The notes under the pieces were generated by a model. It was not told where the DNA came from and searched no databases. It was given only the letters and a program-made list of their open reading frames with translations. The translations under genes and the position numbers were made by a program. From a phage, in the NCBI GenBank assembly GCA_024672275.1, contig GCA_024672275.1_4536.1: 64,000 nucleotides of DNA; one strand, 5' to 3'. Each line of letters begins with the position of its first letter. Position 1 is the stretch's first letter. This document shows, in pieces, positions 2,742 through 43,985 of this stretch.

Positions 2742-2747
2742 AATTAA

Positions 2748-2833: not shown

Positions 2834-2840
2834 GAATTAT

Positions 2841-2917: not shown

Positions 2918-2923
2918 AGCTTT

Positions 2924-2998: not shown

Positions 2999-3271
2999 AT
3001 ACAACATTAAGGGCACTGTGATTGATCGTCGTATCCTGTGCACAAGGTCTGCTCGAAAGACAGTGTTCTTAGTATTGTGTTGATCACACAAAGAGTTACC
3101 TGAAACTTGACCGGAGTAGGGTTGGATGGGGCAAAAGAAGAAGCGGCTCTCCCATCGACAGCAACGAAGAATAATATTTGACTTTGGTTTTGTATTATTT
3201 TAAGTTAGCTTACCGAACGTAGGGCTAGTCACCCAATGGGATACTCGTCACTGTCCCACTCAATAAAACTA

Positions 3272-3301
3272 TTGACAACCAATAGTAAAATGTAGTATAG
3301 T
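3272..3301 (+). promoter_or_regulatory. sigma70-like promoter
   Basis: 'actattgaca' -35 at 3272-3277, 18-nt spacer, tatagt -10 at 3296-3301; tRNA-Gly starts 12 nt downstream. Confidence 0.55.
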
Positions 3302-3312
3302 AAAGATGTAGG

Positions 3313-3386
3313 GCGTTCTTGGTGTAGCGGTAGCATTCCGTCCTTCCAAGTCGGCGGCACGAGTTCGATCCTCGTAGAACGCTCCA
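3313..3386 (+). tRNA. tRNA-Gly (anticodon TCC)
   Basis: acceptor gcgttct/agaacgc, anticodon loop ctTCCaa, T-arm acgag-ttcgatc-ctcgt, CCA. Confidence 0.8.
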
Positions 3387-3484
3387 AATTATTTAATAAA
3401 GGGTTGCCAGAAAACTTTCTCTTTTACTCATGGTTTTCTCCTTCTCTCACACCTCTTCTGGTTGCCCTTCATTAAATGATTTAT

Positions 3485-3560
3485 TGGTTTGTAGTGTAGT
3501 CCGGTAGCACACGACACTTTGACTGTCGTAGGTTTGGTTCAAATCCAGACAGACCAGCCA
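3485..3560 (+). tRNA. tRNA-Gln (anticodon TTG)
   Basis: acceptor tggtttg/cagacca (U1-A72), D-arm gtgt/acac, anticodon stem cgaca/tgtcg with loop ctTTGac, T-arm tttgg-ttcaaat-ccaga, CCA. Confidence 0.7.
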
Positions 3561-3565
3561 TATAA

Positions 3566-3642
3566 CGGAATTTAGCTCAGTTTGGTAGAGCATACGCTTT
3601 GGGAGCGTAGGGTCGCAGGTTCGAATCCTGCAATTCCGACCA
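3566..3642 (+). tRNA. tRNA-Pro (anticodon TGG)
   Basis: acceptor cggaatt/aattccg, D-arm gctc..gagc, anticodon loop ttTGGga, T-arm gcagg-ttcgaat-cctgc, CCA; close to E. coli tRNA-Pro. Confidence 0.85.
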
Positions 3643-3648
3643 ATCAAA

Positions 3649-3722
3649 TGTTTCGTAGTTCAATGGTAGAACCCACGACTGATAATCGTGAGACACAAGT
3701 TCGATTCTTGTCGAAACAACCA
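3649..3722 (+). tRNA. tRNA-Ile (anticodon GAT)
   Basis: acceptor tgtttcg/cgaaaca, D-arm gttc/gaac, anticodon stem cacga/tcgtg with loop ctGATaa, T-arm acaag-ttcgatt-cttgt, CCA. Confidence 0.8.
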
Positions 3723-3724
3723 GT

Positions 3725-3794
3725 TTCCCGTTAGACTTACAGGATAAGAGTTCCACAACTTATTGTGATGCTGGTTCGAATCCAGCACGGGATA
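3725..3794 (+). tRNA. tRNA-like element with oversized (10-nt) anticodon-region loop; possible pseudo-tRNA or non-canonical tRNA
   Basis: canonical T-arm gctgg-ttcgaat-ccagc and cccg/cggg acceptor pairing; internal stem ataag/cttat encloses agttccacaa; no CCA. Confidence 0.3.
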
Positions 3795-3800
3795 CATAAT

Positions 3801-3879
3801 AGCGGGATAGAGGAGTCTGGTCGTCCTCGCCAGTTTCATATGCTGGAGATCATCGGTTCAAATCCGATTCCCGCCTCCA
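3801..3879 (+). tRNA. tRNA-Met (anticodon CAT), initiator-like
   Basis: anticodon loop ttCATat; T-arm atcgg-ttcaaat-ccgat as in E. coli tRNA-fMet; unpaired A1-C72; CCA encoded. Confidence 0.65.
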
Positions 3880-9217: not shown

Positions 9218-9697
9218 ATGGAACTCAATAAAGATACACTGTGGGAACTCTTCAAAACCTTCGCTGGTTTTAAAGAGAATTCTGAATCCCAACAAGATTC
9301 TATACCATCTCAAAAACCTGAAACTCTAGTCAAACAAAATAAATTTGATGAAGAAAAGATGCAGGTTATTGAGGTCTTGTATTGTCCACCTGAAGAAGAT
9401 GATCTCCACGGAGAGCGCATGTCTGATTTGGAAATCAGGAAGATGGTTGACAACTTCAATGAGAATATTACCAATATTAGCGGTAATCTTGGTCACATGA
9501 AGAACACCGATAAGTTTGCTCCAATTAAAGCTTGGGTAAATGAAGTCGATTGTTACATTGGTGACGAACTCGTTGTGGAAGGAACTCCCCTCGTTAAAAT
9601 CCAATTCAACGACCCTGAATTATATCAAGCTCGTAAAGACGGCGTTCTTAAAGGTTTGAGTATAGGCGCAATGGGCGTTAAAGTCAAGAAGGACTAA
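9218..9697 (+). CDS. hypothetical head-module protein (159 aa)
   Basis: ORF between portal and scaffold-like gene; no recognisable motif. Confidence 0.4.
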   Translation: MELNKDTLWELFKTFAGFKENSESQQDSIPSQKPETLVKQNKFDEEKMQVIEVLYCPPEEDDLHGERMSDLEIRKMVDNFNENITNISGNLGHMKNTDKFAPIKAWVNEVDCYIGDELVVEGTPLVKIQFNDPELYQARKDGVLKGLSIGAMGVKVKKD

Positions 9698-9699
9698 TC

Positions 9700-10815
9700 G
9701 TGGCAAATACATATTTAACTAACGTAGACTTTTCTGGAAAATCTACGGAAGAGTCACTAGGTGCTCATATTGCTTACACTTTTGATTTTCAAGGTGGAGC
9801 GGCATCTGGTTACAATACCCCCCTTTTATTTAAGTCAGACGGATCTCCAGACATAACTTTTGAAAAGTTAGAAGCTCTCACTAAAATGGGAGAAGATGTT
9901 ACAGAGTTACGTAAAAGCTATATTCAACAAGTGATGGATCGCATTTCTGAAAAAGTGCGTGAAAAATTTGAAGCTGGTTGGGATTGGGTTTACGTTATTG
10001 ATGCTGACTTCGATGCGAACGTTGCAATTTTCTGTTCAGATAACGGTATGTTCTCTGTTGGCTTTAAAGTTGACGGACTGAATGTTGAAGTTGAAGAGGT
10101 TGCTAAACCTGTTGTTCGTGTTACTGATTATCAAGTTGTTGATGGTGATGTAATGATCTCCATTGATTTCTTTGAGGACGTTTTAGACGATGCTTTGAGT
10201 AATCTCGTTAAGAGTTCCTTGAAACAAAGTCAAGTTAAAGATTATTTAGTGAAAGCTCACGCTAAAGCTAATACAAACTCTGTGGATGCAGAGGCTAACC
10301 CCGCAGGTGATAAATCTGCAAACACAACTGGAATCAATAAAGGAGAAACCCCTTTGGAAAATATCAACAAAGAAGAATTCCTGAAATCTGCTGAATTCCA
10401 AGAACTGATGAAAGCACAGATCGCTGAAGCTGTAGAAAAAGCAGCAGCAGATGCACGTGCAGCCGCAGAACTTGAAGCACAGGAAAAAATCGCTAAGGCA
10501 GAACAGGAAGCAGAAGAACTTCGTAAAGCTGAACAAGCTCGTATCGAAGAAGAATATACAACTGTTGTTAAATCCTATTCTTTCGTAGAAGAAGACAAAG
10601 TTGAAGCTCTCGTTAAATATCTGGTAGACAATAAAGATATCGCTGAAACTATCGTCAAAGCATTCGAAAAAGCACGTGCAGAAGTGGACGCAGTTAAGAA
10701 AGAATTTGGAACAGAACGTGGTGTTGACGTGATCAATACTCAACCTGTAGCTAAATCTTCTTCTGAACTGATTAGTCAGAAAGCTGCTGAACTTAAAAAA
10801 GCCCAGAAACAATAA
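9700..10815 (+). CDS. putative scaffolding protein (possibly protease-scaffold)
   Basis: 371 aa; long Ala/Glu/Lys-rich coiled-coil segment (AEAVEKAAADARAAAELEAQEKIAKAEQEAEELRKAEQARIEEE); position before decoration and capsid genes. Confidence 0.45.
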   Translation: MANTYLTNVDFSGKSTEESLGAHIAYTFDFQGGAASGYNTPLLFKSDGSPDITFEKLEALTKMGEDVTELRKSYIQQVMDRISEKVREKFEAGWDWVYVIDADFDANVAIFCSDNGMFSVGFKVDGLNVEVEEVAKPVVRVTDYQVVDGDVMISIDFFEDVLDDALSNLVKSSLKQSQVKDYLVKAHAKANTNSVDAEANPAGDKSANTTGINKGETPLENINKEEFLKSAEFQELMKAQIAEAVEKAAADARAAAELEAQEKIAKAEQEAEELRKAEQARIEEEYTTVVKSYSFVEEDKVEALVKYLVDNKDIAETIVKAFEKARAEVDAVKKEFGTERGVDVINTQPVAKSSSELISQKAAELKKAQKQ

Positions 10816-26550: not shown

Positions 26551-28704
26551 ATGAAACAAGCTATATTTACTGTCACGCGAGACAAGAGAGTAAATGCGAG
26601 TTCATTTAACTACACGACTGTTGACGGAACAGCAGTCGCTGGTAGAGATTATATTGCAAAATCGGGAACACTTGTGTTCCCTGATGATGCTGATTCTGCT
26701 ACTATTGTGGTTGAAGTATTTGAACGACCAAAGAACTCAATAGATCTTAACTTCTCCCTCCAAGTTTCAGGGATTAGTCAAAATAACATGATGGTTGAAA
26801 CAACCATCAATTGTATTATAACTACTATCCAAGAAAATACTACTCCAATAACTTGGACTACAAAAGACGTTAAAATGTTCTCTCCTATGTATTGGACAAT
26901 AGATTCTCAAGCAACGGAAAGTTGTTCTATTGTATCTCATGGAGACTCTTTTACTGCAAGATTTGTAAACAGAACAACAGCAGGTTTGGCAGGGGTTATC
27001 TGGAGCACAGTTGACAAATATGACCATAAAGGTGTTGGGTATTTGCCTCACACAGATTTAAGTTCAGAGAAACTTTGGTTTAAAATGGAAATTAGTCAAA
27101 ACATGCCAGGTTTTAAAGAAGAACCTTTGGTGCCGACTTTGACTGTAACTCTCCTGGATAAAAGTGTTCATTATGTCAGTTTAGGATTCTACGCTTCAGA
27201 TATTTCAGAAGATGGTAAAACAGCCACAATAAAGTTAGATTTTAGTAATATCTTTTCTGGCCCTAATAATGATATTCCTTTGGATATGAGTGCTGTAGAT
27301 AATATTTTCTTCTCTTTGATTACAGCAAGGTATGAAAAAATAGAAGAGGTTGTACCTATTGACAGTCAAGAGGCTTGGTTTACTTTCACTCTTCTTGAAC
27401 CTACTTCTGGTTACAGTATGATGAAAGTCAGCAACCTTGTCCAGCCTGAACATGATATTCGCATGTGCACATCTTATGATGATATGTATAACCTGACTCC
27501 AGAGAGAGTTATTTATAATACATATGCACTAGGTTATCGTGGAATGATTAACCATTACAACGGAATGTCTCACTATTATGAGTTCTCATGGAACGGAACA
27601 TCTTGGGCTTTAAATAGATCTGTTTTCCTGAATCCGGCTACAGAAGCTTGGCTTAACAGTTTCCATTCTATAGCTAATGAAAATGGCTACACAATAATGA
27701 ACTCTTTGAGTTTTGAGTTGATGAGCACAGTTTGTCCTGTTGAATGGGTCCAGCATGATTGGAACGATGCTCTTGCAGCAACAGGGTATAAGCCTCCTAG
27801 TTACGTGTTGTCTCCAACTATTGACGAAGGCATGGAATATTTGCAAAATGTTATTAACAAAATAGCATCTATTTCTCAAGCTAATAACATTCCAGTCGTC
27901 ATTCAAATTGGTGAACCTTGGTGGTGGTATAATACAGCAAGTAAAATGCCTTGCATATACGATTACACTACCAAACTGGCATTCAACACAGAAACTGGCT
28001 TATTTGCACAAGATGCAGGAACAATAGATAATTATAAAACAGGAACGCCGTTTGACGAATACTATGCATTTTTGTCTCGTAAACTGGGGTTAAGAGTTAC
28101 AAAGTTTGCAACAGACACCAGAGCAACTTATCCTGGAGCTAAAGTAACATTGCTTCCGTTCTTACCGTCAATTATTGGCAACGGTTTGATGGAGAAAGTT
28201 AACTTTCCGTCTGATTACTACATTCCTGAAGCTTTTGATTTTTACTGTTCAGAGTGTTATGACTGGCTTCTGGAAGGTAAGATGATGAAAGCATTTGATG
28301 CAATTACCATACCACATGAAAAATTAGGTTTTGAATATTCTGATATTCACTATCTTTCAGGTTTTGTTCCAGATGCTACTCTTGCGCCTTTGTATGGCTT
28401 CGATCCTGAATCAAACTACCGCACGTATCTTTGGAAAATGATTATAGGTAATATAGTGTTGAACGCCAACAAGTTTAACGGACTTACACAATATATATGG
28501 GCCTATCCTCAAATAATGCACGATTCCATTACGGTAGTTAACTCTCAATCCCAAGTTTTCTATATGGGTAATGTGCCTTTGAATTGCTATTTGCAAGATA
28601 TCACTCTTAAACAAGCAAATGTTGAGATTGCTACCATAAGTGGAATTACATTAGCTACTAAATCTGGAGAAGATTTAGTAACAACACAAAAATTTTATAT
28701 ATAG
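26551..28704 (+). CDS. structural protein with N-terminal Calx-beta-like domain
   Basis: 717 aa; N-terminus TTVDGTAVAGRDYIAKSGTLVFPDDADSATIVVEV fits the Calx-beta motif. Confidence 0.4.
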   Translation: MKQAIFTVTRDKRVNASSFNYTTVDGTAVAGRDYIAKSGTLVFPDDADSATIVVEVFERPKNSIDLNFSLQVSGISQNNMMVETTINCIITTIQENTTPITWTTKDVKMFSPMYWTIDSQATESCSIVSHGDSFTARFVNRTTAGLAGVIWSTVDKYDHKGVGYLPHTDLSSEKLWFKMEISQNMPGFKEEPLVPTLTVTLLDKSVHYVSLGFYASDISEDGKTATIKLDFSNIFSGPNNDIPLDMSAVDNIFFSLITARYEKIEEVVPIDSQEAWFTFTLLEPTSGYSMMKVSNLVQPEHDIRMCTSYDDMYNLTPERVIYNTYALGYRGMINHYNGMSHYYEFSWNGTSWALNRSVFLNPATEAWLNSFHSIANENGYTIMNSLSFELMSTVCPVEWVQHDWNDALAATGYKPPSYVLSPTIDEGMEYLQNVINKIASISQANNIPVVIQIGEPWWWYNTASKMPCIYDYTTKLAFNTETGLFAQDAGTIDNYKTGTPFDEYYAFLSRKLGLRVTKFATDTRATYPGAKVTLLPFLPSIIGNGLMEKVNFPSDYYIPEAFDFYCSECYDWLLEGKMMKAFDAITIPHEKLGFEYSDIHYLSGFVPDATLAPLYGFDPESNYRTYLWKMIIGNIVLNANKFNGLTQYIWAYPQIMHDSITVVNSQSQVFYMGNVPLNCYLQDITLKQANVEIATISGITLATKSGEDLVTTQKFYI

Positions 28705-28712: not shown

Positions 28713-30017
28713 ATGTCAACTACAATTACTAATTTACCAGAAACATCAAAAGTTAATGGTTCTGATTACCTGGTTTTAGACCAATCTGATAAGACTGTTA
28801 AAAGCACAGTTTCCAACTTTCTTACTGACACTGGGGTGGTTTTAGCCACCCAGTTGAAAGATACAGATGGAGCAGATTTAATACAATCCTCAAATGGTAA
28901 TACTGTTCAGGAAGAGTTGAATAACAATCTTCTTAATAATCGTGAACAGTGGCGTCGTAGTCTTGCTGAGGCAGGGTTAACCCTTGTCAACGGTAGCTTT
29001 GAAGAAGGGGCTACAGTAAACAATAAGACGGATGCTGTTTGGCATATTGCTGGTGGGCAGTGCTATACGTGGGATGGTGCTTTCCCTAAAGCTGTTCCCT
29101 CTGACTCAACCACTACATCAACCGGTGGTGTTGGAACAGGTGCATGGGTTAGTGTTGGTGATGCATCTTTGCGTACTGATTTATCTTCATCTGATGGTGC
29201 TGGGCTTATTGGTGTTAGCTCTGGAGGGACAGTACAAGGCTCCCTCTCCGACATTAAGAACTTAATTAAGCACGCGCAGCCGCTTTCTGACAGACGCATC
29301 GTAGCTATTGCTCACCGTGGATATTCAGAGACGTATTTAGAGCAAACACTGATGGCTTACAGTCAATGTAATGCTGATGTATTAGAAGTCGATATGCAAA
29401 CTACATCAGATGGGTATGCTGTGTGCTTCCATGACAATGACTTGTCCCCTGCTACCGTAGGAGGTTCTGGGGCGGTAAAAGATAACACATACTCCACCGT
29501 TTCCGCATTACGTTTTACAAGAGCCGTCGGTACAAGATACGCAGACATGGCGGGCATACCGACATTGGGGTCAGTCTGCCGGATTGCTATGCGACGCGGT
29601 AAAATGCTTCACGCAGAAATAAAAGGCTACAGAACGTTAGAAGATTGCGCTCTTTACTCGAGCATAGTCAACCAATACGGCTTGAGTCCATACACCACAT
29701 TTTCATGCTTCGACTTCGCTCCGTTGGCATACACCCACAACATAAATCCGCGTATTACCTACGCACTAGAGTTAAACTCTTACGATAGTAGCATGGACGC
29801 TAACATAGCAGAGCTTGCGTCCTGGGGCGGGTCTGTGTTGTCTATAAACAAAAACATATTGAGCACTATAGGCAATAAGAAGCTTCGCGAGTGGGAGGCT
29901 ATGGGGCTTACTTTGGCCGCATGGACGATATACACGGCAGAACAAATGCAGACCGTTGCCAATTACGGCATACGTCTTGTATATCTGGATAAAGATTTTT
30001 ACAACATTATAGGTTAA
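28713..30017 (+). CDS. tail fibre-like protein with C-terminal glycerophosphodiester phosphodiesterase (GDPD) domain
   Basis: 434 aa; N-terminal fibre-like region then HRGYSETYLEQT ... LEVDMQTTSDGYAVCFHDNDL (HRG / E-x-D...T-x-DG...HD GDPD signature). Confidence 0.55.
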   Translation: MSTTITNLPETSKVNGSDYLVLDQSDKTVKSTVSNFLTDTGVVLATQLKDTDGADLIQSSNGNTVQEELNNNLLNNREQWRRSLAEAGLTLVNGSFEEGATVNNKTDAVWHIAGGQCYTWDGAFPKAVPSDSTTTSTGGVGTGAWVSVGDASLRTDLSSSDGAGLIGVSSGGTVQGSLSDIKNLIKHAQPLSDRRIVAIAHRGYSETYLEQTLMAYSQCNADVLEVDMQTTSDGYAVCFHDNDLSPATVGGSGAVKDNTYSTVSALRFTRAVGTRYADMAGIPTLGSVCRIAMRRGKMLHAEIKGYRTLEDCALYSSIVNQYGLSPYTTFSCFDFAPLAYTHNINPRITYALELNSYDSSMDANIAELASWGGSVLSINKNILSTIGNKKLREWEAMGLTLAAWTIYTAEQMQTVANYGIRLVYLDKDFYNIIG

Positions 30018-30022
30018 CTGAT

Positions 30023-30790
30023 ATGAAGCAAATTATTAACTCCCGCAATTTCTCACACTGGGACTTTTTAAACACTGGTTCTGGTACAACGATGGTTGTG
30101 CCGGATGGTAGGTTACGTATGCAAAACCCTGATGACTCAAGCAGAGCAATGGTGATTCGCGATATCATGCTAATGCCTGGGGATACTGTGACCATCTATG
30201 GTATTGGAAGGACAACGTCGTTATCATCAGGCGCATTTATAATGGGGGTGGAGTACCCTGTTGGCAAACGCCTCGCTCAAGCTAACTTTATCCATAACGA
30301 AGACAGCTTACTTCTTAAATGTTCATGGAAATGTCCGGTAGACGCCGAACCGTGCACTGTTAGGCTTGCTTGCGGTCTTCCGAAATCAACAACAGCCATT
30401 GCGTATATGACAGACTTATGGATCGAGATTGACTCTGAAAACTTGAGTAGTCGACGCATCTTAATGGACGGTGTTCTTGAGATAAACGCTGGTGTGGCAT
30501 CTATATCAACGGCATATGACCGTTGTAACGTAGGATCAATTAACGCGTCCAGCGTCAACGTTGACATTAGCCCAGCCGTCTTCACCGCAGGAGACCGTAG
30601 GCCTTTGGCGTTTGTCCAGCCGATTTTTAACACTAAAGAAACGTACTCATCCGGAGTTTTAATTCCTGTCGCTGACTTCACTAAGGCTGGGGTTCTAAAC
30701 ATTAGACTTCAAAACCCAGCTACAGGGAATCTCGTAGGTGTTACTGGAGCCAGTATTTACAAAACAATAGCTTTCACTGTATATATTTGA
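30023..30790 (+). CDS. hypothetical tail-associated protein
   Basis: 255 aa ORF following the GDPD fibre gene. Confidence 0.4.
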   Translation: MKQIINSRNFSHWDFLNTGSGTTMVVPDGRLRMQNPDDSSRAMVIRDIMLMPGDTVTIYGIGRTTSLSSGAFIMGVEYPVGKRLAQANFIHNEDSLLLKCSWKCPVDAEPCTVRLACGLPKSTTAIAYMTDLWIEIDSENLSSRRILMDGVLEINAGVASISTAYDRCNVGSINASSVNVDISPAVFTAGDRRPLAFVQPIFNTKETYSSGVLIPVADFTKAGVLNIRLQNPATGNLVGVTGASIYKTIAFTVYI

Positions 30791-30802
30791 TTGCAATACA
30801 CT

Positions 30803-30822
30803 AAAACCCCGCCGAAGCTGGG
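30803..30822 (-). terminator. terminator hairpin (minus-strand orientation; may act bidirectionally)
   Basis: minus-strand cccagc-ttcg-gcgggg hairpin followed by TTTT; same gcttcggcgggg core as terminator at 19569. Confidence 0.5.
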
Positions 30823-30834
30823 TTAGTTCTATCA

Positions 30835-30864
30835 TCAGAACGGAATATCGTCGTCGAAATCCAT
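30835..30864 (-). CDS. 9-codon micro-ORF encoding MDFDDDIPF (the SSB C-terminal tip peptide); near-duplicate of the ssb 3' end
   Basis: ATG 30864..30862, stop TGA 30837..30835; AAGGAGG at 30884..30878; 30835-30872 matches 44042-44079 at 34 of 38 nt. Confidence 0.25.
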   Translation of the reverse strand: MDFDDDIPF

Positions 30865-31029
30865 CGGAGGCTCATTACCTCCTTGTGGGCTTTATTGTTT
30901 GGGTGGCAGTTGCTGTTTATCAACCAAACCAACGCTGCGGTAGGTAGGGGGTTTTTGTTGTACCCCCTAACAAATTATTAGGTAGACTGTTTTAGTCAAT
31001 TACGACTTAACTAACCTGAGAAAGTCCCT

Positions 31030-31320
31030 ATGGGAAATGAACCAGATAACGTAACTCTAGCCAGACTCGAGGAGAGACTGAGAAACATTTTCGAAAACCA
31101 AACCCGTGAATCAAGGGAAAGGGAGAAAATGGAAGAGTCTATTAAAAAACTAAGTGAGTCTATGGGCGACCTTAGTAACCGACTTAAACGGGTAGAGGAG
31201 AGCATCACTAAGTCTGAGCCTACTATTGAAGAGTTCATCACCATTAAACATAAAGTTGCTGGTGCTGGAATTTTTGGCAAGTTGGCATGGGCTGTAGCAG
31301 GTGCAAATGGGCTTCATTAA
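31030..31320 (+). CDS. hypothetical coiled-coil protein with hydrophobic C-terminus
   Basis: 96 aa; charged coiled-coil then GAGIFGKLAWAVAGANGLH. Confidence 0.35.
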   Translation: MGNEPDNVTLARLEERLRNIFENQTRESREREKMEESIKKLSESMGDLSNRLKRVEESITKSEPTIEEFITIKHKVAGAGIFGKLAWAVAGANGLH

Positions 31321-31497
31321 GGTTCACACAAGCTATGTCCTGCAAGCGCATGTCATCGCCATGTGATAAAATGATGAAAACATATCGTAGCAGGGTTAAT
31401 CTTGTCTTTAGTTACTATCGTACTAACTCAAAGTGTTGTCACTACCACTGCAAGCCCCTCCAAAGAGGGGCTTACTTAGAAAAACAAAGAGGTTGTT

Positions 31498-31806
31498 ATG
31501 AACGAAATGTTCTCCCAAGGTGGTAAAGGTTCAACCGGAATCTTAACCAATAAACAAGCAGTAGCCCGTCACTTTGGAGTTAAACAATCTGAGGTTGTTT
31601 ACTTCTCAATTGGTGTGGATTTGGGTGGGTATAAGGTTATCTATGACAAGGAGACGCAAAGGGCGTATTCCCTACCTGCTGATATTGCCCCAGGTACTAC
31701 TGCCATTAGTCTTAGTGCTGCTGTACTTGTGCATTCAGCGGGTTCTGTAGACCTTGGGGAATTAGCTATATCTTGTGATTTAAAAAGTAATGAGAACGCA
31801 CTATGA
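31498..31806 (+). CDS. hypothetical protein (102 aa)
   Basis: ATG with AGAGG RBS; coupled to downstream membrane protein. Confidence 0.45.
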   Translation: MNEMFSQGGKGSTGILTNKQAVARHFGVKQSEVVYFSIGVDLGGYKVIYDKETQRAYSLPADIAPGTTAISLSAAVLVHSAGSVDLGELAISCDLKSNENAL

Positions 31807-35235: not shown

Positions 35236-35781
35236 ATGATATTTACAAACTTTAAAAAATATATTCCTGAAGACCCTGAACTAAAAGAATTGGTAGAAGC
35301 AGAGAACATTCTTTTTCTTCGTTGCGACCAAGGTTACGATTGGTATGATTTACGTAGCACAGAATTCAATAACGATAAAATGAAAGTCGTTTTTGATGAT
35401 CAAAATCGTATTGTGTTTTGGAATACTGATCCTACACTACTTTGCCCTGAAGATCTTTCTATAGCACAAGTAGACTTTAATATAGATACTTTTGAGGATA
35501 TTAGGAACAAGGTTCTGGATTTAGAAACCTTAACTCTTAAGGATAAAGAGTATTCCCGTGAAGAGTTGATGACACAAGCTAGTGCAAAAATTCGCTCTTT
35601 ACAAGAAACAGCGGTAGCACTTATAACACCTTTACAGTATGCTAAAGATTTAGAAATGGCTACTGAAGACGAATTAGCTTATCTTAAAAATCTTCAAGTT
35701 TATGTAGTTAAACTAAATCGTGTTCCGCTTCAAAAAGACTATCCTTACGCTATAGATTGGCCTACATTACCGACAGAATAA
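35236..35781 (+). CDS. tail fibre assembly protein (Tfa-like chaperone)
   Basis: 181 aa; position after fibre gene; C-terminal ...DYPYAIDWPTLPTE typical of Tfa C-termini. Confidence 0.55.
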   Translation: MIFTNFKKYIPEDPELKELVEAENILFLRCDQGYDWYDLRSTEFNNDKMKVVFDDQNRIVFWNTDPTLLCPEDLSIAQVDFNIDTFEDIRNKVLDLETLTLKDKEYSREELMTQASAKIRSLQETAVALITPLQYAKDLEMATEDELAYLKNLQVYVVKLNRVPLQKDYPYAIDWPTLPTE

Positions 35782-36129: not shown

Positions 36130-39100
36130 ATGGCAACATTCCCAACATATCCAGCAACGTCTCTCGAACAGGGCGTAGACCTGGTTATTTTCTCATCTAA
36201 CCAACTCCATGATGTTATTAATGGAAGTGCTACAGAGAGTATTGAAACAGAATCAGGGTTGATACCAACCCTGAGAAAAGCCCTTGTTGACAACTTTTTC
36301 TTTAAAAGCCCATTAGATTGGGCGCAAGGCACAAACGAAACAGTTTTTAACCAACTTCGTTATTTCCAGAATGGAGTATTGAGCGGTTATTACTATGCCC
36401 CTAACGCTACATTGGTTAACCCAATCCCTATGCAAGGGACTCCAGTAGGAGATAACAACTGGGTATTGTGGGGACTGAAGACAGAACAATTGGCAACAGA
36501 AGTCACCCCTTGGGTATATTCTGGTGCAACTGGTTATGAAACAGTAATCAGTCCTCCTTACATCTTTGATAGTGCTATTGTTACGATTAATGGTGTTATT
36601 CAGGTTCTGGGGGAAGCTTTCCGTATAGAAGATAGTAAGATCATCTTATCTGAACCTTTGGGACACGATCCTGCAACAGGACTGCCAAACAAACTTTTTG
36701 CTTATATTGGCAAAATCGTAGCTTCAGCAGATACAGATCCTAATCTAGAGAACCGTCTTGTTAGTTTAGAAACAAAAACGGAAGAACTAACAGAAAGCAT
36801 GGATAAAGTCCCTCTGCAAACTATTGCTCGTAAGTATGGTTTGTTAGATGATGAGGTGGCTTACGCAACAGCAGGTCAATCGTTAACAGGGATTAAAGCT
36901 CTGTATGATCCGGTAGCGCAGTCTTCCTACACATTACCTCCTAACATCACAGGCACTTTAACATCCTTGTCTGTTTCTGGAGTAATGACTTATTCTGGAG
37001 GATCTGTAGACCTTTCTGCACTGGCTGTTGAGCGTGGACAGTTTGTTCATTTGCCTACAAGCTTTGGTAATAATGTAACTCTGACAGCTAAAAATCAGAC
37101 GATTGGACGTGGCGCTGGTCGTTATCGTTGGGCTGGAAGTTTACCAAAAAGTATTTTGGCCTCCGATACATTGGAGACAAGCGGTGGATTAGGTCCAAAT
37201 GCATGGGTTCTGACCAATACAGAAGGACTGTTAACCCCTCGTGGTGGAACATACAACGATTTATTCGATGTTGTCTACTTGTCCGAATTTGCTAACAATA
37301 CAACTACCTATACCACACCAGAAGCAGCTTTCCAGGCGGCACTGTTAGCAGCAAAAGCTTCGAAAAGCAAGATTCTCGATGCTTACGGTTGCGATATGAC
37401 TTTCACGACAAGCTCTTTTGATATTCAAGATATCACTTTGCGTGGTGGTGTGTTCCGTGGTCAACGCGACTATCGTGTGCAGAATGCTACAGTAGAAGGC
37501 ACAACTTTCCGTAACTCTCGTGTTATGTATTGGGGTGGTGCTGTGCGCATGTTCGATTGTTTGTGGGACGGTGCTCCTCGCCCAGGTCAAGTTGGTAGCT
37601 TGGTATTCCAAGGCAACCCAATATCAGGTACTTTTGAAATTGATAACTGTACTTTTAAAAACGGGTTGTATGGCATCCTTCAACAAGGAACAGGGGAACC
37701 AGTAACACGTGGTGTCTTCCGTAACCTTACCTTCATGGACATGCAAGGTGATGCAATAGAACTGAACGTCATCAATAAACATTATGATGATGGTTGTGTG
37801 ATTGAGAATATTTACCTGTCTAATATCGATGGGACTAACGCTCCTATTCCTCTGTCCAACTGGGGTATCGGTATCGGTGTAGCTGGTAAAGGACCATATG
37901 GTTACGGAATCCCTGATGATCAATATTGCAAGAATATTACAATTCGTAACGTTTTTGCAAAACGTTGTCGTCAGATTGTCCACGTAGAAGTTGGTCGTAA
38001 TATCTCTATCGAAAACATTCATGGCGATCCAGACCAGACCGTATCTGTTGGGACAGGTTTGGCAACTGGCGCAGTTGTAATGTATGGAAGTAAAGATTTT
38101 ACGATTGACGGTGTTTACGGAGAGCCTAAAACAGACGGTAGCACACTTGCAAGTAATATCCGTATGATTTATTTGGAGTGGGGAACTAACGCAGTTCTGG
38201 ACGAAGAGGGTAATCCGGTAGTTCCGGCACAGGGTAGACCTTCAAACCCATGCTTTAACTATTCTGTTCGTAACATTCACACCAAAACTGGGCGTGTTTT
38301 TGCGGGAGTTTCCGCTGGGCCAGGTTATGAAAACAGAGTTAGCTTTGAAAATATTCGTTGCGCTGCATTGCAGTTGTTCGGTATAGCTTCTTGGCTTTCA
38401 ATGTCTAACATCACCTGTAATATCTTCGATTGTGTTGGTCAACCTGAATCTGGGCCAGGAACATTTTATGATGGATTCTTCCGTAGAGAAAAATCTGTTC
38501 TTGAAATGGTTAACGTAAACTGTTACCCAGATGGCAAGACGATGGTTACTGGTCGTCCACAGTGGAGCCGTTGCCGTTACTCGGATATTCATCGTGTCAA
38601 CTGTAATGTTGAAGCTAATATGTATACCAATATCGCAGGTGGTATTGGAGCTATTGTAGGGACAACGGGCAAAGTTTATTACTTAGAGCCTAACCCTAGT
38701 CGAAACATTGATGGAATGCATTTCCCAACAGGGAAAGAGTTTGACAAAGGTGATATGATAGTCAAGGCGGATAATACGTTCTTCCTTGTAACAACAAGTG
38801 GGGCATATATTCCAGATATCCCAGCTTTCGGTATTCGAGCTACACAGGCAGGAGATACATTCCTGACACAGAACTTGACTCCTAACGGGACAGCAACAAA
38901 TGCTTCTTGGTTGTATCATTACCCTCTGTCAGCAGGGACACGTATCCGTATTCCTGGTGCTGGTGTAGGTGGAGCAGATTTGGACACAGTTATTACTCGT
39001 GCACCTTATCAAGATAATGATACGTGGACTAACCCAGTTAAAATAGACATTGCAGATCCAATTGTAACGCCTACAAGTGCTGGAGTTAGAATTAAAACCA

Positions 39101-39183
39101 TACCTAATGATTCCAGTAATGTTTCTGTAGGTAATACTGCGGTTATTCGCCCAACGCCAGTAGTAGATGTGCCAACAACCTAA
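36130..39183 (+). CDS. tailspike protein with beta-helix-type repeats (putative depolymerase)
   Basis: 1017 aa; repeated N-x-[ST]-[IV]-x-N motifs (NCTFKNG, NITIRNVFAKRC, NISIENIHGD) typical of right-handed parallel beta-helix enzymes. Confidence 0.55.
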   Translation: MATFPTYPATSLEQGVDLVIFSSNQLHDVINGSATESIETESGLIPTLRKALVDNFFFKSPLDWAQGTNETVFNQLRYFQNGVLSGYYYAPNATLVNPIPMQGTPVGDNNWVLWGLKTEQLATEVTPWVYSGATGYETVISPPYIFDSAIVTINGVIQVLGEAFRIEDSKIILSEPLGHDPATGLPNKLFAYIGKIVASADTDPNLENRLVSLETKTEELTESMDKVPLQTIARKYGLLDDEVAYATAGQSLTGIKALYDPVAQSSYTLPPNITGTLTSLSVSGVMTYSGGSVDLSALAVERGQFVHLPTSFGNNVTLTAKNQTIGRGAGRYRWAGSLPKSILASDTLETSGGLGPNAWVLTNTEGLLTPRGGTYNDLFDVVYLSEFANNTTTYTTPEAAFQAALLAAKASKSKILDAYGCDMTFTTSSFDIQDITLRGGVFRGQRDYRVQNATVEGTTFRNSRVMYWGGAVRMFDCLWDGAPRPGQVGSLVFQGNPISGTFEIDNCTFKNGLYGILQQGTGEPVTRGVFRNLTFMDMQGDAIELNVINKHYDDGCVIENIYLSNIDGTNAPIPLSNWGIGIGVAGKGPYGYGIPDDQYCKNITIRNVFAKRCRQIVHVEVGRNISIENIHGDPDQTVSVGTGLATGAVVMYGSKDFTIDGVYGEPKTDGSTLASNIRMIYLEWGTNAVLDEEGNPVVPAQGRPSNPCFNYSVRNIHTKTGRVFAGVSAGPGYENRVSFENIRCAALQLFGIASWLSMSNITCNIFDCVGQPESGPGTFYDGFFRREKSVLEMVNVNCYPDGKTMVTGRPQWSRCRYSDIHRVNCNVEANMYTNIAGGIGAIVGTTGKVYYLEPNPSRNIDGMHFPTGKEFDKGDMIVKADNTFFLVTTSGAYIPDIPAFGIRATQAGDTFLTQNLTPNGTATNASWLYHYPLSAGTRIRIPGAGVGGADLDTVITRAPYQDNDTWTNPVKIDIADPIVTPTSAGVRIKTIPNDSSNVSVGNTAVIRPTPVVDVPTT

Positions 39184-39246: not shown

Positions 39247-41271
39247 ATGAATTTAACAAGACCTAATAGTGCGATAGCCGATCTGGTAGAAGCTACTTAT
39301 CGAAAACGTCGCAGCTTTGAGGCAGGTTTTACATTACGTAATCCCCGTGAAGTTTTGCTGTTAGCAGCAGAAGGGAATTATTACCAATGGAAAGGAACTT
39401 TTCCTAAAGTAGTTCCAGCAAACTCTACGCCAGCCACCACAGGTGGTATTTCTTCCCTTGCATGGCAAAATGTTGGGACCGCTGATGATATAGCAATTAT
39501 CAATGCCAAGTTTACGGCAGTGCAGCAACAGATCGATGATCTGTCGGAAACAATACCTGAAGCTGGTAAATCAGCTTATCAGATCGCACTTGATAATGGT
39601 TTTGTTGGAACAGAAGCACAATGGCTTGCTTCTTTGAAAGGAGATACTGGTGCTCAACTTAATATTAAAGGATCATTAGCAAGCACTAGTGAGCTACCAT
39701 CTACAGGTAACGTTGCAGGGGACGGTTATATCGTAGGCGATGTAATCTATGCTTGGGATGGTTCTGTTTGGAAACTTATTTCTTCTCTTGGGCCAGAAGG
39801 GAAATCAGCTTATGAGGTATGGTTGGCAGATGGTAATACAGGATCTGTTTATGATTTTCTTACCTCTATAAAAGGTGATAAAGGTGATATTGGTCCTACA
39901 GGGCCACAGGGAGCACCTGGTGTTAACGCCAACGGTTTTGATTATCGTGGGGATTTGCCTTCTACAAGTAACTTACCACAACCTAACTCTGAAAACGTAA
40001 GCCAAGCTTATTCTATCAATGGTAATCTTTATGTCTCTAATGGGACAGCTTGGGTCAACATGGGTAATATTGTTGGTCCTCAAGGTCCACAAGGTGAGGC
40101 AGGTAAAGACGGTCTTGATGGAACAGATGGAGATGAAGGGAAATCTGCATATCAAAGTTGGCTGGATGCTGGTAATGAAGGGACAGAAGTAGATTTTATT
40201 GCCTCACTTAAAGGTCCAAAAGGAGACAAGGGTGATCAAGGAGAGCGAGGTCCACAAGGTGAACTAGGTCCACAAGGACCAGTGGGTGCAACAGGATCAG
40301 GCTTAGAGATTATCGGGGTTCTGAACAGTGAAGCTGAACTTCCTCCTACTGGAGAAGTAGGTGATGCATATAAAATTAATAATGATTTGTATGTTTGGAT
40401 TCAAGATGCTACGGAATGGATGAATGTTGGCAGTCTTGGAGGAACATCAATTACAGCTAAAGGTCATGTTCCGAACAGTGAAGCTCTCCCTGTTTATAAT
40501 AACTATGGTGATGCCTATTTAACTGAAGACACTAGTAATCTTTATATCTATACCTACGATCAAGACACCAATTCCGCATCTTTTGTTGACATGGGAAGTA
40601 TTAAAGGCGACAAAGGTGAAAAAGGGGATAAAGGCGATAAGGGTGATCCTGGAACAAACGGAACTAACGGTACTGATGGGACCAACGGTAAAGACGGCGC
40701 ACAGTGGTTTGTAGCAACAACTAATCCAGTCGCAGGTGATGGTGTTATCAATGATTACGCTTTCAACACTACCACTGGAGCAGTGTTTAAGAAAACAGAT
40801 TCTTCTACATGGACACTTATAGGAACTCTTCCTAGTATACCAGAAGCCCCTCAAGATGGCTTGACGTATGGTCGTTCTGATGGTAACTGGATTGAAATAT
40901 CAGGATCAGATCCTACGGAAGCTATAACACCAACTAAAGTTACAGCAGGTTTCATGGAACTTGAAACAACTACTGCCAACTCTGGAGCATCTTGGACCCC
41001 TTCTGGAACTTCCAATATGTATGTTGTTACAGTAACCGATGCTTTAACAGTTGGAGCATGGCCTGGTGTCACTGGCTCTACAAAGCCTAAAGCGTTTTCA
41101 GCAATGATTTATTTGATTCAAGATACAACGGGACACACGGTTACACTAGATGCGTCTTATGGAGCACTGAATGATACAGAAATAGCAACTACTGCTAACG
41201 CAGTAACAATTTTGCAATTAACGTATCCTGGTGTGGGTGATATCGTGGACATGGTTGTTGTAACACGATAA
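39247..41271 (+). CDS. tail fibre protein with collagen-like Gly-X-Y repeats
   Basis: 674 aa; GDKGDIGPTGPQGAPG, GPQGPQGEAGKDGLDGTDG, GPKGDKGDQGERGPQGELGPQGPVGATG, KGDKGEKGDKGDKGDPGTNGTNGTDGTNGKDG; three copies of GKSAY..WL..GN.G...DF..S[IL]KG module. Confidence 0.6.
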   Translation: MNLTRPNSAIADLVEATYRKRRSFEAGFTLRNPREVLLLAAEGNYYQWKGTFPKVVPANSTPATTGGISSLAWQNVGTADDIAIINAKFTAVQQQIDDLSETIPEAGKSAYQIALDNGFVGTEAQWLASLKGDTGAQLNIKGSLASTSELPSTGNVAGDGYIVGDVIYAWDGSVWKLISSLGPEGKSAYEVWLADGNTGSVYDFLTSIKGDKGDIGPTGPQGAPGVNANGFDYRGDLPSTSNLPQPNSENVSQAYSINGNLYVSNGTAWVNMGNIVGPQGPQGEAGKDGLDGTDGDEGKSAYQSWLDAGNEGTEVDFIASLKGPKGDKGDQGERGPQGELGPQGPVGATGSGLEIIGVLNSEAELPPTGEVGDAYKINNDLYVWIQDATEWMNVGSLGGTSITAKGHVPNSEALPVYNNYGDAYLTEDTSNLYIYTYDQDTNSASFVDMGSIKGDKGEKGDKGDKGDPGTNGTNGTDGTNGKDGAQWFVATTNPVAGDGVINDYAFNTTTGAVFKKTDSSTWTLIGTLPSIPEAPQDGLTYGRSDGNWIEISGSDPTEAITPTKVTAGFMELETTTANSGASWTPSGTSNMYVVTVTDALTVGAWPGVTGSTKPKAFSAMIYLIQDTTGHTVTLDASYGALNDTEIATTANAVTILQLTYPGVGDIVDMVVVTR

Positions 41272-41312: not shown

Positions 41313-43985
41313 ATGTTTCCAATTCCAATATTTACTATTATGACCAGCACTGGTGTCGTTCCTCTGCCAGCGGGTATTGTTAAAAAAGTAATCACTTTAG
41401 ATTACCCAGATAATGCTGGTAATTCTAACAGCAGTTTAGCAATTTTGCTTAATGATGGTAGATTGTTTACTCAAGGCGCAAACCTCTTTGGTGAGATTGC
41501 AGATGGAACTCGTAGTGCACGATTCAATAATTTCCACTTAGCTTCTACTGTAGTAGCGGATGTGTTTACCGCAGATCGTTGTTTTGTTATTAAAACTAAT
41601 AGTGGGGGATGGCAATATTCAGGATTGACAGCAGGGTTGGTAGGATCTATAGCAGCAGGTGGTACGGATGCATGTGTAACTACTTGGACCAGCTTTCCAT
41701 CTGTAATAACAGGGACTATCTCTTTAGCCAATCTTAAAGAGGTTAAGGGAGGATATAACAACACTCTCTGGTTAATGAATAGTGGTGTTCTTTACGGATC
41801 TGGTCAAAACACAGTAGGCAGTTTAGGTGCAAGTACTACTAACGAAGTTTCTACTCCTCGTCAGATAACAAGTGCAGCAGTTGCTTTTGATGCAGGTTAC
41901 AACCAATGCTCTTATGTCAACAATGTGGGAACCTTGCGTGTTTGTGGAGCTAGTAAAGGTTTAGCAGGTAATAATAACACAACAACAGCTTTTGTCAATG
42001 CCAAGATATCCGCTACTGAAACAGTGTATGTCAAAGATTACATCAATACAGTTTCCCAGACAATAGTTGTAGGAGATACCTCCGGTGGCACGGGTACAGT
42101 AAACTACTTATATGTCAGGTCTAATACAGAAACAACCTACACTAAACTGGATACCTTTGCAGCAGGTTTCTCAACATGGAAATTTCCACCAAGCCGCCAC
42201 TCTTTTTTCGTTGGGATCAACAATTCCTTGTGGGCTATTGGTAAGAACTACACTGCAAACTTAGGTTTGGGGTATGATTCTGCGAGCGGAGATCCACTCC
42301 AAGTGGGAAAACCAGTTAAACCTGAAGGAGTGGGTTCTTGGGATATAAACAAGCTCACAAGCGTTCATACGCTGAATATGGATATTACTAACCAATTAGG
42401 TTATCAAGGAACCTTTTTCGTTTATAACGGGGATATGTATTATTCCGGTATTTGGAAAGATGGGAAAGCCTCGTATCTGTTCAACAGTGGTCTAAATTAT
42501 AATAAATTCACACCGATAGCAAGCTCTGTGATTACGGGTGATATTCTGGCAACTGGTTTAACTACAGATTCTTTAGGAATTTGTATTGTAGGTGGAACTA
42601 AACAGTTGACACATTCTGTTAGCCCAGAAGGAGGTAAACTTTTCAATATTAAATACACTTCTTCTGCCCCTGCAAACATGACAATATCATCCACTGGTTT
42701 AATGACTTTCCATGCAGAAGGTGGTTTTGATGCAGGTATGACAGCCTTAAACGCTGAAGGAACAACTTTATCAGATACCTCTGGAGGATATGCTTCAACA
42801 TTGAGTGTTTACACCCCTAGCTTATCTGCGATGGATGTAGGAACAACACAAACAATGGTAGCAGAAATAACGCCAACAGGAGCAGCAAGCTTACCTGGTA
42901 TGGTTGTTGAGTATACAACTACAGATCCTAATGTTGCTACAGTAGATCCTACAACTGGTGTAATAACTGGTGTTGGTGATGGTGGTTGTAGAATTGGTTG
43001 CACAGCTACGTATCAAGGTGTTGTTACCGCTTCTGATAGTTCTTATTTAACGGTGAACGCTGTTGCGGGAAAGGAGTTAGCTCCATCTCCGAGTAGTAGT
43101 TTAACGGTTCTAAACGGATATTTCAACCACTCGGCAGATGGGGCAATTACGTTCCCAATTTTATCGGGTACTGTCACACCAGCTAACTTTGTAGTTAAGG
43201 TGGATGACGTTGTAATACCTTCAAATAAAGTAATATTTAGAAATAAAGCTTTCTCTACAGTGGATAGTTATCCAGCAGGAGAATATAGACTGGCTATTGA
43301 ATTTGCAAGTGCTTCAGTAGTGAATAGTGTTGATGTGTCTATGGAAGCAAATCCAGATCTTTTAGAATTATGGGGCGGCAACAGAATTGGTTATTCTACA
43401 AGCCCAGCCTCACAATTCTTAAAAGGTTGTGCTAACTTAAGACGAATAACTTCTGATTGTTTTAGTAACACATCTTACACCGGAACATCTATAAGTGGTA
43501 TCTTCTCTGGCTGTACAAGTTTGACAGCTATCCCTGAAGGATTATTCAGTGATGCTTTATTTCCTTCAATGACAACAATGTCAAGCACGTTTGAAGGTTG
43601 TACATCTTTAACATCTATTCCTTCAGATTTATTTAAGAATCTATCAAAAGTTACAAGATATTCTTACACCTTTAAAGATTGCACCTCTCTTGCAGAAGTT
43701 CCAGCAGGAATGTTTGATAATATTCCAACAAAAGTGACCTCTTTAACAGCTACATTCCAAGGTTGTTTAGCACTTACAGATTTTAATAAAATCTTTAATG
43801 ACAACCCAGGGTTAACTGTTTGTGGTAAACGTGGAGCATTATCTTCTTTCTTTAGTGGATGCACAAATCTTACAGGAACAGGAACAACATTAACAAATAC
43901 ATTAGGTGGAGTAGCTAATAGTTACCTATTCAGGTATTGCACAAAACTTTCTGATTATAACAACATTCCTTCTGGTTATAAATAA
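41313..43985 (+). CDS. large tail fibre/adhesin-like protein with Ig-like (Big_2-type) domain and C-terminal BspA-type leucine-rich repeats
   Basis: 890 aa; Big_2-like segment (TMVAEITPTGAASLPGMVVEYTTTDPNVATVDPTTGVITGVGDGG); C-terminal repeats F.GCTSLT.IP..LF every 23-25 aa. Confidence 0.5.
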   Translation: MFPIPIFTIMTSTGVVPLPAGIVKKVITLDYPDNAGNSNSSLAILLNDGRLFTQGANLFGEIADGTRSARFNNFHLASTVVADVFTADRCFVIKTNSGGWQYSGLTAGLVGSIAAGGTDACVTTWTSFPSVITGTISLANLKEVKGGYNNTLWLMNSGVLYGSGQNTVGSLGASTTNEVSTPRQITSAAVAFDAGYNQCSYVNNVGTLRVCGASKGLAGNNNTTTAFVNAKISATETVYVKDYINTVSQTIVVGDTSGGTGTVNYLYVRSNTETTYTKLDTFAAGFSTWKFPPSRHSFFVGINNSLWAIGKNYTANLGLGYDSASGDPLQVGKPVKPEGVGSWDINKLTSVHTLNMDITNQLGYQGTFFVYNGDMYYSGIWKDGKASYLFNSGLNYNKFTPIASSVITGDILATGLTTDSLGICIVGGTKQLTHSVSPEGGKLFNIKYTSSAPANMTISSTGLMTFHAEGGFDAGMTALNAEGTTLSDTSGGYASTLSVYTPSLSAMDVGTTQTMVAEITPTGAASLPGMVVEYTTTDPNVATVDPTTGVITGVGDGGCRIGCTATYQGVVTASDSSYLTVNAVAGKELAPSPSSSLTVLNGYFNHSADGAITFPILSGTVTPANFVVKVDDVVIPSNKVIFRNKAFSTVDSYPAGEYRLAIEFASASVVNSVDVSMEANPDLLELWGGNRIGYSTSPASQFLKGCANLRRITSDCFSNTSYTGTSISGIFSGCTSLTAIPEGLFSDALFPSMTTMSSTFEGCTSLTSIPSDLFKNLSKVTRYSYTFKDCTSLAEVPAGMFDNIPTKVTSLTATFQGCLALTDFNKIFNDNPGLTVCGKRGALSSFFSGCTNLTGTGTTLTNTLGGVANSYLFRYCTKLSDYNNIPSGYK

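Follow-up and report, generated by a model that had tools for sequence, protein, structure and literature searches.

A predicted glycerophosphodiester phosphodiesterase tail spike and its orphan partner gene in a relative of Phapecoctavirus coliphages

Glycerophosphodiester phosphodiesterases (GDPDs) are known as virion components of phages that infect Gram-positive bacteria. Lactobacillus delbrueckii phage Ld17 carries a baseplate glycerophosphodiesterase (Cornelissen et al. 2016, as cited in PMC6116005), the 'petal' domain of the Staphylococcus phage 812/K central spike (PDB 9EUL) is a putative teichoic-acid cleaver, and a further such domain forms the C-terminus of phage K gp155 (9F5M). The role proposed for these enzymes is cleavage of surface poly(glycerol-phosphate) during adsorption or penetration. 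The reviewed coliphage spikes that act on O-polysaccharides are hydrolases, lyases and deacetylases, with no phosphodiesterases among them (PMC10743462). Here we describe a tail spike gene with a C-terminal GDPD domain in a 64,000-nucleotide stretch of phage DNA (contig GCA_024672275.1_4536.1, hereafter the window), together with the gene that follows it. The window is 96–97% identical at the DNA level to Phapecoctavirus genomes (ZCKP1, ukendt, Ro121c4YLVW and others; Stephanstirmvirinae, myoviruses of ~150 kb). Our interpretation, to which we assign a probability of about 0.6, is that the spike is a metal-dependent phosphodiesterase that attacks the glycerol-phosphate linkages of O-antigens, probably with the help of a lectin-like partner.

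The spike open reading frame (ORF) encodes 434 aa, begins with ATG and ends with TAA, and a Shine-Dalgarno sequence, TAGGAG, lies 7 nt upstream of the ATG at 28713. The identical protein is present in NCBI as HCJ8179828.1, a 'hypothetical protein' encoded on a 151,261-bp contig of an E. coli assembly. The gene and its three parts are as follows.

28713–30017, plus strand: tail spike gene with anchor, neck and GDPD domain (ORF, Pfam, PHROG)
28713–29168, plus strand: genus-conserved anchor, residues 1–152, including Tail_spike_N (residues 92–150, nt 28986–29162), defined by identity to Phapecoctavirus relatives
29169–29312, plus strand: helical neck or linker, residues 153–200 (helices 151–158, 162–165 and 174–188 in the AlphaFold2 (AF2) model)
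29313–29990, plus strand: GDPD domain with a triosephosphate isomerase (TIM) barrel fold, residues 201–426 (Pfam, alignment to 2pz0 and 5t91, invariance within the family, Foldseek)

The N-terminal part was recognized by the Pfam Tail_spike_N profile (PF18668, E 1.1e-20) and by more than 40 PHROG tail-spike and tail-fibre families, which matched residues ~1–190 with E values down to 1e-28. A sequence search of the PDB related residues 75–190 to the N-terminal parts of solved tail spikes (8x8m, 9occ and the CBA120 tail spikes) and residues 190–426 to GDPDs (2pz0, 5t91 and the phage K and phi812 proteins; E ~1e-10). The Pfam GDPD profile (PF03009) matched residues 201–426 over profile positions 1–240 of 244 with an E value of 6e-21 and 76.1 bits, far above the cut-off of 23.6, and one PHROG family, phrog_16641 (tail fibre), matched the GDPD part. 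The original prediction had described a fibre-like N-terminal region fused to a C-terminal GDPD. The fusion of a virion part to a GDPD holds; the N-terminal part is instead a tail-spike anchor or adaptor with no fibre shaft, as the PHROG tail-spike families indicate. Neither Pfam nor the AF2 model nor Foldseek revealed a beta-helix depolymerase domain in the C-terminal part, where the GDPD TIM barrel is found instead.

Sister phages keep spike residues 1–152 at ~85–95% identity and attach to them entirely different C-terminal parts, giving spikes of 688–762 aa. The conservation of this anchor makes it very likely that the protein is a virion-anchored GDPD spike, presumably incorporated as a trimer. 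At the nucleotide level, identity to Phapecoctaviruses UP17 and Ro121c4YLVW is 93–94% up to ~29170; the UP17 spike protein is nearly identical over residues 1–150, after which the identity vanishes. As sister phages share the anchor but differ in the C-terminal part, we take the spike locus to be an often-swapped host-range slot. UP17 and TSP7_1 were at one point candidate GDPD carriers on the strength of a tblastn alignment that reached residue 273. They were rejected, as the BLASTP stretch past residue ~155 was meaningless and Pfam found no GDPD in them. In Shigella phage SF1-1 the same slot holds an 'Endo-alpha-sialidase', and in Escherichia phage JLBYU50 a 'putative phosphodiester glycosidase family protein', which would be another phosphodiester-aimed spike with a different fold.

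All elements of the GDPD signature that had been predicted are present, namely H201-R202-G203, E210-Q-T212, E225-V-D227 and T231-S-D-G-Y-A-V-C-F-H240-D241. HMMER alignment with the Thermoanaerobacter tengcongensis GDPD 2pz0 paired H201 with H17, R202 with R18, E225 with E44, D227 with D46, H240 with H59, E302 with E119 and K304 with K121, and the catalytic and metal-binding residues likewise aligned to those of Bacillus subtilis GlpQ (5t91). Thus, none of the catalytic His, Glu or Asp residues is missing, and all seven positions are invariant or nearly so among 19 relatives that are 47–87% identical to the query. By alignment, H201 and H240 are the predicted general acid/base pair, R202 and K304 would bind phosphate, and E225, D227 and E302 would form the metal-binding triad. 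As the full active site is conserved, the spike GDPD is likely to be catalytically active.

The AF2 model of the spike has an overall predicted local distance difference test (pLDDT) score of 65; the C-terminal half of the barrel is good and residues 201–280 are poor, with values below 50 at residues 201–221, 240–252 and 267–280. Foldseek searches with this moderate model nonetheless returned GDPDs almost exclusively, in agreement with the Pfam and PDB matches. More than 40 GDPD structures were matched with a probability of 1.00 and target-normalized TM-scores of 0.6–0.77, which is consistent with the (beta/alpha)8 TIM-barrel fold. The top match was B. subtilis GlpQ (3e-13), and the phi812 central-spike petal domain and the phage K gp155 C-terminal domain were among the matches. 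Scores against the NCBIfam equivalog models for GlpQ/UgpQ (NF006989, NF008354) fell well below their cut-offs (51.1 bits versus 264 and 19.5 versus 254). We conclude from these scores that the spike GDPD belongs to a divergent phage-borne branch of the superfamily and is not a GlpQ/UgpQ orthologue.

The spike resembles the GDPDs of Ld17, 812/K and gp155 in placing a TIM barrel with two catalytic histidines at the tail tip. It differs from them in sequence, being only 20–25% identical, and in that their targets are Gram-positive wall and lipoteichoic acids. Moreover, their GDPDs reside in the central spike or baseplate hub, whereas that of the window is carried by an exchangeable peripheral PF18668 spike, and they are not known to have a CBM-like partner gene. 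GlpQ of B. subtilis (5T91/5T9B), which degrades teichoic acid, gave the best structural match and ranked in the top two among PDB sequence matches, but it is a secreted cellular monomer for phosphate scavenging, lacks a virion anchor and is ~22% identical. A functional parallel is the O-antigen deacetylase gp63.1 of phage G7C (PMC10743462), which is also a small hydrolase without a beta-helix, sits on a modular anchor and attacks a non-glycosidic bond of the O-antigen. Modules of the G7C type are interchangeable with classical depolymerase modules at the same locus, as we propose for the window spike. However, gp63.1 is an SGNH esterase and the window spike a predicted metal-dependent phosphodiesterase, with a different fold and chemistry.

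Two lateral tail fibres of Drexlerviridae, those of Escherichia phage DTL (YP_009795742) and Erwinia phage Snitter (QXG07653), also end in a GDPD domain (Pfam E values of 3e-27 and 2e-39, respectively); they are annotated merely as tail or tail-fibre proteins. Apart from DTL and Snitter, none of the phages of Gram-negative hosts among 50,697 sequenced phage records has a GDPD tail protein; the GDPD domains of these two are 25–29% identical to ours. Full-text literature searches likewise yielded no account of a GDPD spike or fibre from a phage that infects Gram-negative bacteria. A Gram-negative GDPD spike with a partner thus appears to be undescribed, virion GDPDs being known from Gram-positive phages. 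What is new here is the host class, the architecture and the orphan partner; the enzyme family and the logic of the spike are already known. The partner gene, the mobile cassette and the link to O-antigen described below go beyond the original prediction.

The partner ORF starts 5 nt past the spike stop codon.

30023–30790, plus strand: partner gene, 255 aa, orphan; two predicted beta-sandwich domains, of which the N-terminal one resembles a carbohydrate-binding module (CBM) (model)

This ORF is absent from the sister Phapecoctaviruses compared. Its predicted structure is all-beta and has the beta-sandwich (jelly-roll) fold of the CenC/CBM4-9-16-22 type. The best matches of the model were glycan-binding modules and the distal domains of phage spikes and fibres, and no known chaperone family was among them. 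The partner could be placed in no described CBM family, as searches of Pfam, PHROG and NCBIfam were empty even at E values up to 10, and a profile search started from the partner brought in close relatives only. A homologue of the partner (46–83% identity) follows the GDPD module at a distance of 5–22 nt in every locus that encodes a close GDPD relative, and the two proteins diverge in parallel: locus by locus, identities of GDPD and partner to those of the window are 95.5 and 83%, 65 and 70%, 61 and 49%, 58 and 46%, and 59 and 51%. That the spike is always paired with an orphan whose predicted fold is CBM-like suggests a division of labour, with one polypeptide for catalysis and another for recognition of the glycan, and our tentative assignment of the partner is to a glycan-binding subunit. 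In one Citrobacter record (L004) the partner was called as 223 aa (9355–10026) from an internal start, and the full 255-aa frame, 9259–10023, is intact by tblastn. In the other Citrobacter locus (L005) the counterpart partner gene lies at 2939–3706. For comparison, the gene order in DTL and Snitter is GDPD fibre, an ORF of ~263 aa and a convergent ssb. The DTL ORF (NC_047893, 4716–5513, ~265 aa) is unannotated, lies directly past the GDPD tail-fibre gene and shares 33% identity with the ORF of Snitter. The Snitter ORF has weak, partial profile similarity to the window partner (hhalign probability 88%), and hhalign gave no signal for that of DTL.

The pair of GDPD spike and partner was found in the following contexts outside the window.

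SU10/Kuravirus-type podovirus contig (L003): GDPD spike and partner
Lambdoid prophage of Citrobacter (L004/5): GDPD spike and partner, with convergent gtrA-gtrB-gtrII
Siphovirus-type prophage of Proteus vulgaris (L006/7): GDPD spike and partner, with no O-antigen modification gene
Prophage of Proteus sp. FME41 (L010): GDPD spike and partner, with an Oac-type Acyl_transf_3 gene
IMG/VR contig (L011): GDPD spike and partner, with convergent gtrA-gtrB-gtrII
Chromosomal prophage of E. coli adjoining ompW and trpA (L012/13): GDPD spike and partner, with an Oac-type Acyl_transf_3 gene

Scans of species-representative genomes and of IMG/VR contributed one locus each. The pair thus occurs in siphovirus-type prophages of E. 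coli, Citrobacter and Proteus, and the hosts of the GDPD module are E. coli, Citrobacter, Proteus and Providencia. The lysogens include P. vulgaris (CP063314.1), Citrobacter (JBRYHT01), Proteus sp. FME41 (NZ_JABUYL01) and Providencia rettgeri. The two families are small and nearly equal in size, with ~22 clusters for the GDPD spike and 20 for the partner (at 90% identity, among 5.8 billion). Among 1.84 billion representative proteins, no more than 7 reach 59% identity or above to the GDPD module, after which identity falls to 36%, and the more distant relatives (32–37% identity) are phage tail proteins too. Database labels for such proteins are 'hypothetical', 'tail fiber protein' or 'glycerophosphodiester phosphodiesterase family protein'. 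No close relative of the spike was present among the 50,697 phage records, in which the best GDPD match was 29% identical, and no prophage copy was present in 5,426 complete E. coli genomes; the source contig of the window holds phage DNA alone. N-terminal adaptors of at least four kinds precede the module (PF18668 by itself, the P22 head-binding domain PF09008 either with PF18668 or lacking it, a T7-tail-fibre-like N-terminus, and others), and the join is always at the motif DAsLRxDL…GA..IG…TVQ, and the neck stretch (residues 153–200) is kept in family members whose N-termini differ.

O-antigen-specific tailspikes encoded beside serotype-conversion genes are a well-known arrangement of P22- and Sf6-like phages. 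The prophage relatives of the window spike show the same arrangement, with the spike and its partner placed against gtrA/gtrB/gtrII or Acyl_transf_3 genes, and some of them carry the PF09008 domain. In four of the five independent temperate contexts, genes for O-antigen modification lie immediately beside the pair and are convergent with it. It is from this adjacency, as in the P22/Sf6-type phages, that we infer recognition of O-antigen by the GDPD spikes. The differences from P22 and Sf6 are that the GDPD replaces a beta-helix endoglycosidase and that the phage of the window is lytic and lacks modification genes. O-antigens with glycerol-phosphate are listed for E. coli O28ab, O37, O100, O130 and O33 by titles in the references of PMC7685785; a glycerol-phosphate O-polysaccharide is also found in Proteus mirabilis and P. 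vulgaris O54, and the Pantoea agglomerans O-polysaccharide has a glycerol-phosphate side group. The taxa with such O-antigens largely overlap the hosts of the cassette (E. coli and Proteus), which occurs in addition in Citrobacter and Providencia and not in Pantoea. Given the chemistry of the family and the gtr/oac context, a glycerol-phosphate-bearing O-antigen is a plausible substrate, with the odds slightly in its favour.

Our working model for infection is the following. Residues 1–152 would plug the spike into the baseplate or receptor-binding complex, residues 153–200 would serve as a helical neck, and residues 201–434 would form the metal-dependent GDPD TIM barrel. The spike, probably with the partner as its glycan-binding subunit or tip, would dock on a surface polysaccharide containing glycerol-phosphate, most likely O-antigen. 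Hydrolysis of the glycerophosphodiester bond would then cut the main chain of a teichoic-acid-like polymer or, alternatively, remove side groups of phosphoglycerol. In both cases the virion would advance through the O-antigen layer as far as the outer membrane, much as phages with glycosidase, lyase or deacetylase spikes do.

Several observations weigh against this model. GlpQ-type GDPDs are exo-acting and require unsubstituted glycerol; for this reason removal of side groups or chain ends fits better than endo-depolymerization, and the exo mode of action favours a de-decorating role analogous to that of the G7C deacetylase spike. A monomeric TIM barrel on a trimeric anchor without a beta-helix is unusual for a depolymerase. 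The AF2 model is mediocre, and around the first catalytic motif (201–221) it is too poor to show the active-site geometry. One temperate context, that of P. vulgaris, is without an O-antigen modification gene, and DTL, whose GDPD fibre is a distant relative, is propagated on E. coli K-12, a strain devoid of O-antigen. Finally, the role given to the partner is drawn from fold and synteny, and it could be an assembly chaperone. The E. coli K2 capsule, a galactosyl-glycerol-phosphate polymer, was considered as a substrate and set aside as unsupported: the genomic context points to O-antigen, and in K2 the O-2 position of the glycerol is substituted with a sugar, a feature that GlpQ-type enzymes do not accept.

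The same enzyme could act nearer the membrane, on the bond that anchors phosphatidylglycerol-linked enterobacterial common antigen (ECA-PG) or the (lyso)phosphatidylglycerol anchor of group-2 capsules, or on a phospholipid head group, leading to shedding of the phospholipase D type. Lysophospholipase D enzymes of the GDPD superfamily are indeed among the matches (7ym0, 8ghh; NF053857), but these matches are much weaker than the GlpQ-type ones. ECA-PG is phosphodiester-linked to its lipid (PMC10743462), the four genera in which the module occurs all make enterobacterial common antigen, and propagation of DTL on K-12 would be readily understood. On the other hand, if all these hosts shared the receptor, the module would be expected to be widespread, whereas it is rare; a hypervariable, strain-specific host-range slot is unexpected for a conserved target, and the adjoining gtrABC and oac genes point to O-antigen. 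We therefore give this explanation only a slim chance. Cleavage of another phosphodiester, such as a ribitol-phosphate or sugar-1-phosphate linkage in O-antigens or capsules, is marginally less improbable. Ribitol-5-phosphate occurs in E. coli O118 and O151 (PMC7685785), the sister phage JLBYU50 has its 'phosphodiester glycosidase family' protein in the same slot, and at 20–25% identity to characterized GDPDs, below every NCBIfam equivalog cut-off, specificity is not transferable. However, all characterized members of the GDPD family act on glycerol (or inositol-type) phosphodiesters, and the residues of GlpQ-type enzymes that contact glycerol-3-phosphate are conserved in the spike.

The spike might also not be an enzyme at all, its GDPD domain acting as a lectin that binds phosphoglycerol epitopes without turnover, in which case it would be a non-enzymatic receptor-binding protein. 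Activity is unproven even for the solved GDPD domains of phages, the phi812 petal domain being a 'putative' hydrolase, and the canonical 'dRTT' motif that follows the HD motif is replaced by L-S-P-A-T or L-S-I-Q-T. Yet a module that only binds would be free to lose the seven catalytic and metal-binding residues, and these are kept in relatives down to 47% identity, which makes loss of catalysis hard to credit. For the partner, the competing explanation is a dedicated assembly chaperone of the GDPD spike that is absent from virions, with the spike working alone. Tail-fibre and spike genes are commonly followed by a gene for a specific chaperone, and the 5–22 nt spacing and parallel divergence fit any obligatory protein–protein relationship. 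The CenC/CBM-type fold, with its matches to glycan-binding modules and distal domains of spikes and fibres, speaks for a glycan-binding subunit; moreover, no Caudo_TAP or other chaperone profile matched the partner, and a Caudo_TAP chaperone, which serves the long fibre, is already encoded at 35236–35781. We consider the chaperone somewhat less likely than the glycan-binding subunit, yet of all these alternatives it is the one to be taken most seriously.

If cleavage of glycerol-phosphate O-antigens by a partner-assisted spike is correct, phosphodiesterases would be a fourth chemistry, beside glycoside hydrolases, lyases and deacetylases, in the attack of phage spikes on the surface glycans of Gram-negative bacteria. 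Such a spike would likewise account for the way in which phages cope with O-antigens that are phosphate-bridged and teichoic-acid-like, among them those of E. coli O28ab, O37, O100 and O130 and of Proteus O54. The division of catalysis and recognition between two polypeptides would be unusual among receptor-binding proteins. In its widest form, which we offer with some reserve, the proposal is that these loci encode the first phosphodiesterase class of O-antigen-targeting spikes in Gram-negative phages, a two-component unit of GDPD spike and orphan lectin-like subunit that moves as a cassette among myo-, podo- and siphoviruses of Enterobacterales and that specifically binds and cleaves teichoic-acid-like (glycerol-phosphate) O-antigens. 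The enzyme might find use as a reagent or tool for typing particular serotypes, as a means of reducing the virulence of pathogens whose O-antigens contain glycerol-phosphate, and as a marker for the prediction of phage host range.

The borders of the imported segment were defined by comparison with the podovirus contig L003 and with sister Phapecoctaviruses.

29070–31306, plus strand: imported host-range cassette comprising the C-terminal two-thirds of the spike, the partner, a non-coding tail and a gene fragment (identity to L003)
29070–29170, plus strand: left recombination crossover zone within the Tail_spike_N coding region, where Phapecoctavirus homology (ends ~29170) overlaps L003 homology (starts 29070)
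30835–30891, minus strand: scar, remnant of an ssb 3' end (…SPQGGNEPPMDFDDDIPF, then stop) with an in-frame stop before the remnant (translation)
31030–31320, plus strand: scar, truncated 96-aa copy of a podovirus gene, with the right end of the cassette at ~31306 (alignment to the 110-aa gene at L003 6897–7229)

The cassette is 89% identical to L003 4911–7173 over 2,264 bp. The segment is absent from the sister Phapecoctaviruses, whose homology to the window ends at ~29170 and resumes at 31309–31325. Enzyme module and partner gene would accordingly have arrived as a 2.2-kb cassette from a SU10/Kuravirus-type podovirus, through recombination inside the Tail_spike_N coding region. At the right end, the 96-aa ORF corresponds to the first 277 nt of the 110-aa gene of L003, homology stopping at L003 7173. 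In L003 the complete gene lies just ahead of the lysis module, in which DUF7940 and a GH108 endolysin are followed by other genes. The presence of a truncated copy of this podovirus gene at the cassette end sets the direction of transfer, from podovirus to myovirus. The 96-aa product is a coiled coil and is probably a non-functional hitch-hiker.

The second scar carries the history further back. Just past the partner stop codon the minus strand reads …NEPPMDFDDDIPF followed by a stop, the signature C-terminal tail of the single-stranded DNA-binding protein SSB. This ssb remnant has 82–86% nucleotide identity to the 3' end of ssb in T1-like Drexlerviridae, where it borders on the gene for the lateral tail fibre; Kuraviruses carry the piece as well. 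From the remnant and the gene order of Drexlerviridae, the likely route of the cassette was from a T1-like siphovirus locus to a Kuravirus-type podovirus and from there to a Phapecoctavirus. The scars are an unusually clear record of a host-range module passing through three phage morphotypes. Beyond the cassette, a 102-aa ORF at 31498–31806 (plus strand; MNEMFSQGGKGSTGILTNKQAVARHFGVKQSEVVYF…), called 'tail protein' in sister phages, is conserved in the window and has no Pfam match. It resembles the N-terminal adaptor of the Kuravirus-type GDPD spike of L003 (72% nucleotide identity to L003 4584–4808) and looks like a free-standing adaptor-domain protein.

The spike gene lies among structural genes: upstream are those for a tail protein and a 'non-contractile tail sheath' protein, and downstream follow baseplate J, a baseplate protein and a tail fibre. 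Directly upstream, at 26551–28704 (plus strand), is the gene for a 717-aa protein with Calx-beta, NCTSP_N and TIM-barrel domains (PF23845, E 5e-79); in relatives it bears the label 'non-contractile tail sheath' although the phage is contractile-tailed. Besides the spike, the window encodes two or more further PF18668 proteins, an RCC1/Big_2 protein, and a long fibre together with the Caudo_TAP chaperone that serves it. With this number of receptor-binding proteins, the phage is expected to recognize several receptors. The additional PF18668 proteins are a 1017-aa protein at 36130–39183 (plus strand), which has a sub-threshold Beta_helix match and a relative annotated 'colanic acid degradation', and a 674-aa protein with collagen repeats at 39247–41271 (plus strand). 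An 890-aa protein with RCC1-like and Big_2 domains is encoded at 41313–43985 (plus strand). The sign of the GC skew flips at ~44 kb (window ~44000), where genes change from the plus to the minus strand. A cluster of 10 tRNA genes (Met ×2, Arg, Ser, Asn, Thr, Gly, Gln, Pro and Ile) occupies positions 1957–3879 on the plus strand.

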